Below, one piece after another: positions 3,679-28,547 of a DNA stretch of 64,000 nt. The DNA is taken from assembly GCF_965641715.1 (NCBI RefSeq), contig NZ_OZ282453.1; one strand, 5' to 3'. The stretch is from Escherichia coli. Its GTDB lineage: Bacteria; Pseudomonadota; Gammaproteobacteria; Enterobacterales; Enterobacteriaceae. The position numbers were made by a program, and so were the translations under genes. The notes beneath the pieces are model-generated. The model saw nothing but the letters and a program-made list of their open reading frames with translations. It ran no database searches and was not told the origin of the DNA. How positions within the stretch are numbered: the first letter of the stretch is position 1; each line of letters opens with the position of its first letter.

Positions 3679-4470
3679 TTATATTATGTCTATGCCATCA
3701 AGAAGTTTTTGTTGATCTCTAAGTTTGCCTAAGTAACTATTTATTTCTGTATATGTATCAACTTTAGAACGCTTTGTTAAAAGAATAGATGCTGTTGCTA
3801 TCGCTATGCCCGCTGTTTTTTCATTTAGTATTTGATCATAGCCTTTGATTGCATCTCCACCCAGTTTTTCCGCAGTATCTCTGAATCCTTCAATGTTCCC
3901 ATTGTATACGCCACCAGCAGCAAGTAGCCTGCCAACAGCTTTGCTGTTTAACGTTTTGAAACGATTATTTGTTTGGTTTTTTGAATTTGGTAAAAACAAA
4001 CGGTTATAATTTTCAGGGAGTGCCAAATAGCTGAACTCGGTATTTGCGATAAGATGTTGACAGAGGATAAATTCATAACTAACAGTTATTGTTTCTGTAT
4101 CCAGTTGATTTTGAATGATCTGATGATGAATAGCCGATAAAAAAGCGCCTCTTAGTTGTGTATAATAATACTTTTCCCATCTACCAAATCTATTGATTCT
4201 ATAAAAGTCAAATTTCATAAATAATTGCTCATTATTGTTAATGGAATTAATAAGTAATGGAGTGCTTTTATCAATTAATTTACAAAATGTCATAGCCTGT
4301 AACTGTGAACCAAGCCCCGTATTAGTAATTCTATTTTCGAGTGAGAATGTAAATATTTCATTCTCATGCCCGCTCTGCCAGCGATTACCTATAGATTCAG
4401 TAGTCCCACAACCTGCGGAGATGCTTCCTTGTTGTTCTCCCGTTACTGTCAGATAAACAATATTACTCAT
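3679..4470 (-). CDS. yhhZ: Hcp (type VI secretion tube protein) domain with C-terminal extension; N-terminal part of a yhhZ-like Hcp-toxin fusion ending at an in-frame TAA
   Basis: N-terminus MSNIVYLTVTGEQQGSISAGCGTTESIGNRWQSGHENEIFTFS is Hcp-like; 263 codons to TAA at 3679..3681; ORFs 3679..4470 and 3292..3537 share one frame; combined length ~392 codons equals K-12 YhhZ as recalled. Confidence 0.7.
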   Translation of the reverse strand: MSNIVYLTVTGEQQGSISAGCGTTESIGNRWQSGHENEIFTFSLENRITNTGLGSQLQAMTFCKLIDKSTPLLINSINNNEQLFMKFDFYRINRFGRWEKYYYTQLRGAFLSAIHHQIIQNQLDTETITVSYEFILCQHLIANTEFSYLALPENYNRLFLPNSKNQTNNRFKTLNSKAVGRLLAAGGVYNGNIEGFRDTAEKLGGDAIKGYDQILNEKTAGIAIATASILLTKRSKVDTYTEINSYLGKLRDQQKLLDGIDII

Positions 4471-25642: not shown

Positions 25643-25670
25643 AACGGGGCCACAAGGTCCCGTTTTTTTT
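25643..25670 (+). terminator. Rho-independent terminator of the glg operon
   Basis: Stem AACGGGGCC (25643..25651) / GGTCCCGTT (25656..25664) then a T8 run. Confidence 0.8.
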
Positions 25671-25742: not shown

Positions 25743-27260
25743 ATGGACAGAATGATGCCAAATAGAAAATGGATTTTGACCTCGCTGATAATGACTTTTT
25801 TCGGCATCCCCATACTGGCGCAATTTTTGGCAGCGGTTGTTGCCATGCTGGGTGTCGGGCTTACCGGTATTATTGAAGTTTGTAATATCCTTATCACGCC
25901 AACAATTTATCTTCTACTCAACGTCTTTATGCTGACGCTGGGGGCGATAATAATATTTTTCTCTGGTCGCGTGTGGGCCGGTGATAGCGCGCCAGAAAAC
26001 AGAGAAATAGCCGTCTGGCGGCAATGCTTTTTTCTCTTACCCGCGCTATTAACCTTGGTTGGCTGGATAATCACGCTACATCTGGCAGATTATCAATTTC
26101 GCCAGATGGGAGCTGGTTGGTTGGCAAACCTTATGCTTCCCTGGTTGGGCGTTTTTTTAGTCTCATTAGTGGGTGGTGAGTACTGGTGGATGGTCATTAT
26201 TCCCGTTGGGGCGCATATCAGTTTTTCGCTGGGATACGCCTGGCCGACCAGATATCCTTTATCCGGCACGTCCGGACTACGTTGCCGTAACTTACTCCTG
26301 TTTCTACTTATCTTACTTGGTATTGTCGCCGGGTATCAGGCCCATTTATATAAGCAGCAAAATCCTGGTGTCGGTGTACGCGAAAATATTGATATCTGGG
26401 CCTGGCGACCCGATAAACTCAATAATCGACTGACGCCGCTGCGTGGCAAACCGCAAATTCAGTTTAGGCAAAACTGGCCGCGAATCGATGGCGCCACGGC
26501 TGCGTACCCAATTTATGCTTCTGCATTTTATGCATTAAGTGTAATACCAGAGGATTTTCACGTTTGGGATTATCTGGAAAACTCTCGTACGCCAGAAGCA
26601 TATAACAAAATCGTTAAGGGCGATGCTGATATTATTTTCGTGGCGCAACCTTCCGGTGGGCAAAAAAAACGTGCAAAGGAATCTGGTGTCACTTTGGTGT
26701 ACACCCCCTTTGCCCGTGAAGCATTCGTTTTCATCGTCAATGCGGATAATCCGGTTAATTCCCTGACTGAACAACAGGTGCGTGACATTTTCAGTGGTGC
26801 AATTACCAATTGGCGTACTGTTGGCGGTAACGATCAGGAGATCCAGACCTGGCAGCGCCCGGAAGACTCTGGCAGCCAGACAGTGATGCAATCACAGGTC
26901 ATGAAAAATGTCCGCATGATCTCGCCGCAGGAAACGGAAGTGGCAAGCGTGATGGAGGGAATGATTAAAGTCGTTGCCGAATACCGTAATACAAACAACG
27001 CAATAGGCTATACCTTCCGCTATTACGCGACGCAAATGAATGCCGATAAAAATATAAAACTGCTAGCGATTAACGGTATTGCACCGACTGCGGAAAATAT
27101 TCGCAATGGCAAATATGCGTACATCGTCGATGCATTTATGGTGACGAGAGAAAATACAACGTCAGAAACACAAAAACTGGTCGAATGGTTTTTAACGCCG
27201 CAGGGGCAGAGTCTGGTAGAAGATGTGGGATATGTGCCGCTGTATCCAACAATGGAATAA
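25743..27260 (+). CDS. membrane-anchored PstS-like (PBP-like) substrate-binding protein: ~6-7 TM N-terminal domain plus C-terminal binding domain
   Basis: 505-aa ORF; N-terminal ~200 aa with several hydrophobic helices; C-terminal domain paralogous to the next gene (IIFVAQPSGGQKKRAKESGV...WQRPEDSGSQTVMQ); start codon uncertain (25743, 25752 or 25755). Confidence 0.75.
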   Translation: MDRMMPNRKWILTSLIMTFFGIPILAQFLAAVVAMLGVGLTGIIEVCNILITPTIYLLLNVFMLTLGAIIIFFSGRVWAGDSAPENREIAVWRQCFFLLPALLTLVGWIITLHLADYQFRQMGAGWLANLMLPWLGVFLVSLVGGEYWWMVIIPVGAHISFSLGYAWPTRYPLSGTSGLRCRNLLLFLLILLGIVAGYQAHLYKQQNPGVGVRENIDIWAWRPDKLNNRLTPLRGKPQIQFRQNWPRIDGATAAYPIYASAFYALSVIPEDFHVWDYLENSRTPEAYNKIVKGDADIIFVAQPSGGQKKRAKESGVTLVYTPFAREAFVFIVNADNPVNSLTEQQVRDIFSGAITNWRTVGGNDQEIQTWQRPEDSGSQTVMQSQVMKNVRMISPQETEVASVMEGMIKVVAEYRNTNNAIGYTFRYYATQMNADKNIKLLAINGIAPTAENIRNGKYAYIVDAFMVTRENTTSETQKLVEWFLTPQGQSLVEDVGYVPLYPTME

Positions 27261-27285
27261 CGCTCGAGAGAAAGGAATCAGCGAG

Positions 27286-28278
27286 ATGAATAAATTCACC
27301 GGTGTTTTACTATTAGGCACGGCGTTACTGGCGGGATGTGTCGACCGGGAAGGGTACTATAACAGCGTCAGGGAAGAAGAGAGCCATGGACTGACGTCTC
27401 TGCGGGGGCAACCTGCATTACGTTACAGCGATGATTGGTCAAGATGGCCGAGAGTGTACGGCGCTACAGCCTTATACCCGCTGTATGCCTCCGCGTATTA
27501 TAAATTAGTACCCGAGCCAAAAGATAAGGATCGAACCTCGCTGGCCTGGCAGGCGTATGGTTTGCAGCAAACCCGAACAGCTGAAGCCTACGATAGTCTG
27601 ATTAAAGGTTCCGCGACGGTTATTTTTGTTGCACAACCGTCGGAAGGACAGAAAAAACGTGCAGAAGAAGCGGGTGTTAAACTGAAATATACCGCTTTCG
27701 CCCGCGAAGCCTTTGTCTTTATCGTTGATATTAATAACCCGGTAAATTCTCTCTCTGAGCACCAGGTTAAAGATATTTTTAGCGGCAAAACTAGCCGCTG
27801 GAATAAAGTAGGTGGTAGTGACGAACATATAAAAGTCTGGCAGCGCCCTGAAGATTCTGGAAGCCAAACGATTATGAAGGGATTGGTTATGCAAGACACC
27901 CCAATGCTGCCAGCTAAAAAATCCACTGTGATTGATCTTATGGGCGGTTTAATTACTGAAGTTGCCGACTATCAAAACACGCCATCTTCCATTGGGTACA
28001 CCTTCCACTATTACGTCACTCGTATGAATGACAATATGCTCAAAATGCGCAAGCAGATTAAACTTTTGGCTATAAATGGCGTTGCGCCTACCGAGGAAAA
28101 TATCCGCAACGGCACTTATCCATACATTGTGGATGCCTATATGGTGACGCGTGAAAATCCCACGCCGGAAACGCAGAAATTTGTTGACTGGTTTATAAGT
28201 CAGCAGGGGCAACAGTTGGTAGAGGATGTGGGGTATGTGCCGCTGTATGAAGCATCCCCCGAATCATCAGGACAATAA
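27286..28278 (+). CDS. PstS-like (PBP-like) substrate-binding lipoprotein, paralogue of the upstream gene
   Basis: Frame of ORF 27223..28278; start MNKFTGVLLLGTALLAGC (lipobox LLAGC) at 27286 after AAAGGAA; 330 aa; shares VIFVAQPSEGQKKRAEEAGV...WQRPEDSGSQTIMKG with the upstream gene. Confidence 0.8.
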   Translation: MNKFTGVLLLGTALLAGCVDREGYYNSVREEESHGLTSLRGQPALRYSDDWSRWPRVYGATALYPLYASAYYKLVPEPKDKDRTSLAWQAYGLQQTRTAEAYDSLIKGSATVIFVAQPSEGQKKRAEEAGVKLKYTAFAREAFVFIVDINNPVNSLSEHQVKDIFSGKTSRWNKVGGSDEHIKVWQRPEDSGSQTIMKGLVMQDTPMLPAKKSTVIDLMGGLITEVADYQNTPSSIGYTFHYYVTRMNDNMLKMRKQIKLLAINGVAPTEENIRNGTYPYIVDAYMVTRENPTPETQKFVDWFISQQGQQLVEDVGYVPLYEASPESSGQ

Positions 28279-28412
28279 TGATGAATATAATCAGACTTTA
28301 TATTTATCCGTTATTTCTCGGCTTTGTTATTGTGCCGTTGTTGGTGTGGCCGATGGTGGTTGCGCTGGCTGCTTGTATTATCGTTGACAAAGTGCACTTT
28401 GTTCATGCCTGA
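28278..28412 (+). CDS. candidate 44-aa hydrophobic small protein, translationally coupled to the lipoprotein gene
   Basis: ATG at 28278 overlaps the TAA of the upstream gene (TAATG); MMNIIRLYIYPLFLGFVIVPLLVWPMVVALAACIIVDKVHFVHA; below the ORF-track size cut-off; no RBS beyond coupling. Confidence 0.3.
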   Translation: MMNIIRLYIYPLFLGFVIVPLLVWPMVVALAACIIVDKVHFVHA

Positions 28413-28440
28413 TGCGGCGTGAACGCCTTATCAGGCCTAC
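28407..28440. repeat. REP (repetitive extragenic palindromic) element
   Basis: GCCTGATGCGGCGTGAACGCCTTATCAGGCCTAC; a related copy lies at 53568..53593. Confidence 0.7.
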
Positions 28441-28547
28441 AAAATCATGCAAATTCAATATATTGCATAAACCACGCATCAGGCAATTTTGTGTTTGTCA
28501 TCAGTCTCAGGCCAGATTGAAATCTGACCTGATCACCTTACGTTAAT

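Follow-up and report, generated by a model that had tools for sequence, protein, structure and literature searches.

A putative three-gene islet between glgP and glpD of Escherichia coli that may couple a PstS-type binding domain to a dedicated membrane domain

Between glgP and glpD, a 64,000-nucleotide stretch of Escherichia coli DNA (contig NZ_OZ282453.1; hereafter, the window) carries two intact genes (genes 1 and 2) and the stub of a third (gene 3), which we interpret, with about even confidence, as a partly decayed three-gene islet in which a PstS-type binding domain works with a dedicated helical-bundle membrane domain, not with an ATP-binding cassette (ABC) transporter. Gene 1 holds both modules in a single polypeptide, and the lipoprotein encoded by gene 2 together with the membrane domain encoded by gene 3 would constitute a split version of the same unit; with gene 3 deleted in the window, gene 1 would be the only complete unit left. 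An earlier note, made from the sequence alone, had described tandem binding-protein genes at this position without an adjacent ABC permease or ATPase gene, and the open reading frames (ORFs) of the window bear this out, their order being glgC-glgA-glgP, two plus-strand ORFs, glpD on the minus strand, glpE, glpG, glpR and rtcR. That reading was largely right, but incomplete: the two paralogs are real, whereas a third gene, of which 35 codons remain, had been overlooked.

The two intact genes share one domain, as previously proposed. BLASTP aligns their products with 59% identity over 286 aa (E 6e-117), and the motifs FAREAFVFIV, NPVNSL and WQRPEDSGSQT are found in both proteins. The assignment of this domain to the PBP_like_2/PstS-type family, proposed in the earlier note, is upheld by Pfam, which detects PBP_like_2 (PF12849) in residues 247-485 of gene 1 (E 1.5e-29) and in gene 2 (E 8e-30), so that a periplasmic binding protein (PBP) fold is present. 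Foldseek searches against the PDB likewise return PstS structures as the best matches (E about 1e-14, target TM-score about 0.8), and the nearest solved relatives, by both sequence and fold, are the PstS phosphate-binding proteins 4Q8R/4GD5, 9L8J, 1TWY and 4EXL. Against the PstS model TIGR02136, the two proteins score 123.7 and 119.1 bits and do not reach the curated cut-off of 206.6; TIGR00975, with 15.8 bits against a 205-bit cut-off, is not reached either. Given that the proteins stay below the TIGR02136 cut-off, the RefSeq product name "phosphate ABC transporter substrate-binding protein" must derive from a rule weaker than the family model; it is not supported as written and is probably too specific.

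The pocket residues were mapped by profile alignment and counted over 61 family members from several phyla. Six phosphate-ligand positions are kept in 82-98% of the members: T249 (50/61), T280 (56/61), R369 (58/61), S373 (59/61), G374 (57/61) and S375 (60/61). At position 298, which corresponds to Ser59 of the Clostridium perfringens protein and Asp56 of the E. coli protein, the family has Ala, Phe, Tyr or Leu and never Ser or Asp, and position 299, an Arg in canonical relatives, is occupied by Glu, Gln or Ala. Other residues are specific to the family, namely Q368 (59/61), Q376 (60/61), P300 (60/61), S301 (55/61) and R423 (44/61). As judged from these alignments, the tetrahedral-oxyanion binding core is conserved and the selectivity-determining part differs. 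Free phosphate is a possible ligand, as are another oxyanion and a larger molecule bound by its phosphoryl group; because the proteins score below the PstS cut-off and the selectivity residue is lost, we treat phosphate as a presumed ligand.

The second module, the N-terminal region of gene 1, had been described as a hydrophobic multi-helix segment. It comprises about 205 aa and is polytopic, with six modelled helices, and is thus more than a signal peptide. The AlphaFold2 (AF2) model of full-length gene 1 has a mean predicted local distance difference test (pLDDT) score of 85, and that of the membrane domain alone a pLDDT of 85.7 and a predicted TM-score (pTM) of 0.84; the helices span residues 6-44, 50-78, 84-111, 121-141 (kinked at 128), 146-166 and 174-203. 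A Pfam search of the domain gave no match, including to the BPD_transp-type ABC permease families, and Foldseek against AFDB50 recovered the membrane fold solely in proteins of the same family, Bacillota members among them. When its profile was compared with 1.84e9 representative proteins, 181 matched, nearly all of them about 480-520 aa long and with the membrane-plus-binding architecture, and none of these 181 joins the membrane domain to a different partner. Its sequence is poorly conserved (mean column identity 31%), with P20 invariant and G72, W105 and Q196 near-invariant, and the alignment contains no conserved charged residues within the membrane. In 23 homologs, Lys and Arg residues in loops occur at the N-terminus, after helix 2 and after helix 5, with almost none flanking helix 4. 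Together with the lipoprotein nature of the periplasmic paralog, this pattern favours a topology with the N-terminus inside, five crossings, a non-spanning helix 4 (121-141) and a periplasmic binding domain.

The properties of the membrane domain also bear on the idea that it forms a conduit, that is, an ATP-independent channel or facilitator that is gated by the binding protein and passes a phosphate-type solute. The obligate coupling of binding and membrane domains, either fused or translationally linked and without an ABC or TRAP partner, is what such a device would require, but a domain of only five or six helices that lacks conserved charged or polar intramembrane residues and resembles no transporter fold makes this highly unlikely, and we rank it as the least probable of the readings considered here. 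Since conserved charged or catalytic residues are missing from the membrane partner, it more likely has an accessory or signalling role than carrier or enzyme activity, and the sensor or accessory role put forward in the earlier note fits the sequence data.

Gene 2 shows the predicted lipoprotein signal, its N-terminus MNKFTGVLLLGTALLAG-C18 fitting the lipobox [LVI][ASTVI][GAS]C (LLAG-C18; Cys codon at 27337-27339), and lipoboxes are also found in gene 2 homologs from Salmonella and Pseudocitrobacter. Escherichia sp. E1V33, in which gene 3 is intact, has a gene 2 with 100% identity to the window copy. In O157:H7, gene 2 is followed by gene 3, a 200-aa polytopic membrane protein whose ATG overlaps the gene 2 stop codon (TAATG). 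A 523-bp deletion in the window has removed codons ~36-200 of gene 3: blastn aligns window position 28382 with position 4382 of locus L002, and the alignment picks up again at L002 position 4906. By profile comparison, gene 3 is a divergent paralog of the gene 1 membrane domain, since its end-to-end alignments to the membrane-domain profile reach 32.3 and 26.9 bits (maximum of 9.0 in 1000 shuffles) and hhalign aligns the two over 161 columns with a probability of 96.3% (E 1.9e-9). Profile methods were required to see this relationship, as pairwise BLASTP yielded only a 12-residue match (E 0.038); Pfam and NCBIfam gave nothing useful for gene 3. Through this paralogy, both modules are present in two copies in the islet, as a fusion in gene 1 and as separate proteins in genes 2 and 3. 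A related organization is seen in Pseudocitrobacter cyperus, where the lipoprotein paralog precedes an overlapping gene with a membrane domain (83.8 bits) and a decayed binding domain, an arrangement that plausibly represents an intermediate between the fused and split forms, and in a Campylobacteraceae genome, a free copy of the membrane domain immediately precedes a fused gene. In the binding domain of the 351-aa Pseudocitrobacter protein (L019:6002-7057), GATA is changed to GEEG and the QRPEDSGSQ segment is missing; the next gene (L019:7231-7659) encodes a 142-aa secreted protein of repeated RDxNGNxxGS units.

Beyond E. coli, a scan of one genome per species yielded 67 loci from Enterobacterales, Campylobacterota, Bacillota, Desulfovibrio, Planctomycetes, Accumulibacter and others. 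The N-terminus is polytopic in 45 of 65 family ORFs from several phyla, as sorted by hydropathy segment counts, which over-split helices and were applied only to tell polytopic from non-polytopic proteins; the gene often occurs in tandem, in arrays of as many as four copies. In Klebsiella and Salmonella, the fused gene also occupies the glgP-glpD slot and is followed by small cassettes for a YbbD_head lipoprotein and a DUF4279-like protein, and in Rahnella it lies between purB and phoPQ. An ABC-ATPase motif directly downstream was seen at only four of the 67 scanned loci, all low-scoring outgroup PstS loci; at family loci, the nearest ORFs with an ABC-ATPase signature are 4-6 kb away and not arranged as an operon. 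No pstCAB genes were found at the window locus or in any other inspected context, nor did the other inspected contexts share a conserved neighbour gene. The PHROGs database returned a phage PstS family as its sole match.

These contexts are difficult to reconcile with an ordinary extra PstS that is tethered to the membrane and delivers phosphate to a PstCAB transporter encoded elsewhere, its membrane domain being only an anchor. Such tethering is usual for binding proteins of Gram-positive bacteria, the family's nearest relatives in sequence and structure are PstS proteins, and six of nine phosphate-contacting positions are conserved. However, the TIGR02136 scores fall short of the cut-off, the Asp56/Ser59 position and the adjacent canonical Arg are replaced, and the family genes, unlike the four outgroup PstS loci, lack adjacent ABC genes. 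Moreover, no Pho box (CTGTCATAWAWCTGTMAY) within 3 mismatches occurs anywhere in the window, which is a weak test, and a family-restricted multi-helix domain with a free-standing paralog exceeds the needs of an anchor. We thus regard an ordinary PstS function as improbable, and as the foremost of the rivals to a module that operates with its own membrane partner.

Within E. coli, a presence/absence survey of 5,426 complete genomes, of the kind that the earlier note had suggested, shows the islet to be variable. Essentially full-length copies of gene 1 occur in 3,349 genomes (62%) and of gene 2 in 884 (16%), and the O157 allele, used as a probe, detects gene 3 in at least 2,054. In 2,279 genomes, genes 1 and 3 are separated by an alternative middle cassette. 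In E. coli O114:H49 (L003:5775-7255), this cassette encodes a 236-aa protein, named "YbbD family" in one RefSeq record and weakly DUF4279-like, and a Cys-rich 255-aa protein; searches of Pfam and NCBIfam gave nothing useful for the former and no match for the latter. K-12-type strains keep only yzgL at the locus, which had been described as a small remnant and is indeed a deletion stub, in which ~225 nt from the start of gene 1 are joined to ~60 nt from the end of gene 3. Identity between the window and O157:H7 over this region is 97.7%, and only 2 of the 5,426 genomes contain the whole region at 99% identity or more. The nearest genome, that of strain 100181 from Gambia (99.5% identical), has the same gene 3 truncation. 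Gene 1 alleles differ by a dS of 0.41-0.47, as compared with 0.04-0.10 for the flanking glgP and glpD genes. For gene 1 as a whole, dN/dS is 0.11-0.13, with values of 0.17 for its membrane domain and 0.07-0.09 for its binding domain. On these substitution rates, the gene 1 alleles are old, functional and under purifying selection, and the history of the islet is much deeper than, or foreign to, that of the surrounding core genome. In the literature, the islet appears as O-island 133 of O157:H7 EDL933, entered as "unknown", and its expression in O157:H7 is reported to be very low; yzgL is listed in a CpxR regulon table, and a 2026 paper describes the glp-glg region as a variable hotspot.

Truncation of gene 3 by the 523-bp deletion, loss of nearly the whole islet in K-12 and many other strains, and the low reported expression might be taken to mean that the islet is a decaying, non-functional remnant in this genome. 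Against this stand the intact full-length ORFs of genes 1 and 2 in the window, the purifying selection on gene 1 and the fact that the fused form of gene 1 stands alone in many taxa. Non-functionality is therefore unlikely, and among the rivals we place it ahead of the conduit alone.

A further lead comes from Salmonella, in which two gene-2-like lipoproteins (61-63% identical to gene 2) are encoded within an orphan Rhs array, one of them after an orphan Rhs C-terminal toxin. The array of S. enterica (L017:1-10993; also L020-L023) is flanked by a yegS-like gene and a DUF4034 gene and contains core-end fragments, three N-terminal fragments, an HExxH (M91-like) toxin, an Ntox34 fragment and a HEAT-repeat immunity-type gene. 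The toxin family in question (L021:9389-9784; L017:1571-1993; L091:4554-5060), which comprises about 130 aa after a DPLGL motif, has seven database relatives; for the Salmonella toxin, Pfam yielded no match and NCBIfam nothing useful. Such neighbours raise the prospect that the family consists of envelope-protection or immunity-like proteins against interbacterial toxins and that orphan immunity-type cassettes make up an island in the glgP-glpD slot. The exchange of cassettes in this slot, YbbD-family proteins included, as well as the deep divergence of alleles, the frequent tandem paralogs and the common gene loss would agree with this notion. Tracing it through the toxin homologs did not uphold it. 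The homolog in Citrobacter freundii is followed by a 92-aa polytopic membrane protein, likely the product of an immunity gene, and not by a PBP, and no PBP gene was found near Citrobacter toxin homologs in the inspected loci. The Salmonella array is the one case of a family gene placed after a toxin gene, a situation seen neither at the Citrobacter homolog nor at the 67 family loci, none of which has Rhs or PAAR seeds nearby. PADLOC, which models known anti-phage defence systems, gave no match for any of the six islet proteins, and a PBP domain that shows the low dN/dS given above, remains 35-45% identical across phyla and retains an intact oxyanion pocket is unlike fast-evolving immunity proteins. 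Protection against toxins hence remains a minority rival, which in our estimation ranks between an ordinary PstS and a non-functional remnant.

For a PstS-type module coupled to its own membrane domain, the following mode of action can be envisaged. The binding domain would face the periplasm and bind either a tetrahedral oxyanion or a larger molecule by its phosphoryl group. Its selectivity may be altered, given the replacements at the Asp56/Ser59 position and of the Arg next to it; ligand-driven closure could then act on or through the membrane partner. A signal, a conduit or protection are possible outputs of the module, and from sequence features we would favour an accessory or signalling role over an ordinary PstS function, protection against toxins or a conduit. 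It is tempting to speculate further that the family represents an unrecognised class of ABC-independent, binding-protein-coupled devices, extending from Enterobacterales to Bacillota and Campylobacterota, that sense or handle a phosphoryl-bearing envelope molecule, such as a lipid-linked or polymer phosphate, instead of importing free phosphate. We consider this broader proposal doubtful; if true, the frequent duplications and the deep divergence of alleles would be ascribed to adaptation, either to variable ligands or to attack by other bacteria.

Several observations weigh against a dedicated binding-membrane unit. Gene 2 has Val at position +2 after the lipid-modified Cys, which, by the +2 sorting rule, suggests sorting to the outer membrane and complicates docking of the lipoprotein on an inner-membrane partner. 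The weak conservation of the membrane domain could mean that it is only an elaborate anchor. If all six helices of the model spanned the membrane with the N-terminus inside, the binding domain would come to lie in the cytoplasm. The islet is also frequently deleted, both in K-12 and, for gene 3, in the window, and is thus dispensable; and our literature search found no functional study of its genes, which are given there only as "unknown".

The coordinates of the islet are compiled in Table 1. Start positions follow the RefSeq annotation of strain 100181: gene 1 has an alternative in-frame ATG at 25743, and the true start of gene 2 is 27286, as compared with 27223 for the longest ORF. Just past the glgP stop codon, at 25643-25670, lies a G+C-rich hairpin followed by a T run (ACGGGGCC-ACAA-GGTCCCGT-TTTTTTT), which looks like a glgP terminator and is missing from the output of the terminator scan; a promoter scan performed no better than on shuffled sequence. 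At the other end of the islet, the REP palindrome sits in the retained spacer downstream of the deletion junction, and Rfam reports sub-threshold matches in window positions 28386-28467 to the REP-derived small RNA (sRNA) families naRNA4 (34.8 bits, compared with a gathering score of 59.5) and ES036, which overlap this palindrome; the naRNA4/REP match covers 28386-28437.

Table 1. Features of the glgP-glpD islet in the window.
Feature	Position	Strand	Description	Basis
Gene 1	25752..27260	+	502-aa fusion of polytopic membrane domain and PstS-like binding domain	ORF, RefSeq start, Pfam, AF2
Gene 1 membrane domain	25752..26366	+	aa 1-205	
Gene 1 PstS-like type II periplasmic-binding domain	26472..27251	+	aa ~241-500; putative oxyanion ligands T249, T280, R369, S373, G374, S375	
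Gene 2	27286..28278	+	330-aa lipoprotein paralog of the binding domain	
Gene 3 stub	28278..28382	+	35 codons; remainder of 200-aa membrane protein; residual ORF to 28412	
523-bp deletion junction	28380..28384		relative to O157:H7 and Escherichia sp. E1V33	blastn
REP-type palindrome	28407..28436		inverted repeat in spacer before glpD	

The family is already annotated, probably under a wrong name, in thousands of genomes, which carry a phosphate ABC transporter label for a function unsupported by the evidence presented here. A phosphate-binding-type domain that has long been tied, across phyla, to a membrane domain without an ATPase points to an undescribed use of binding proteins at the membrane. 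The absence of the islet from K-12 helps explain why it has received little study, and natural knock-outs such as the window, in which gene 3 is deleted, ease genetic tests.

Among known systems, the closest is PstS of the PstSCAB transporter (TIGR02136 type; C. perfringens PBP-1, 4GD5/4Q8R), with which the islet proteins share the type II fold, a pocket core of Thr, Thr and R-x-x-x-S-G-S/T and the same order of motifs throughout the domain. They differ from it in the hydrophobic or small residue at the Asp56/Ser59 position, the replaced Arg, the family's own Q368, Q376, P300-S301 and R423, the lack of pstCAB linkage and of a Pho box, and the unique polytopic membrane domain that is fused or coupled to the binding domain. 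In OpuABC and GlnP, binding domains are fused to ABC permeases. Gene 1 similarly has its binding domain covalently joined to a polytopic membrane domain, but this domain has no Pfam match and a fold found only within the family, and no ATPase gene accompanies it. Finally, LuxP-LuxQ, TorT-TorS and GluR0 exemplify binding-protein co-sensors or binding-domain-gated channels. As in these systems, a binding-protein fold is combined with a membrane partner outside ABC import, whereas the islet proteins contain no kinase, cyclase, chemoreceptor or pore-loop domain and have short cytoplasmic loops.

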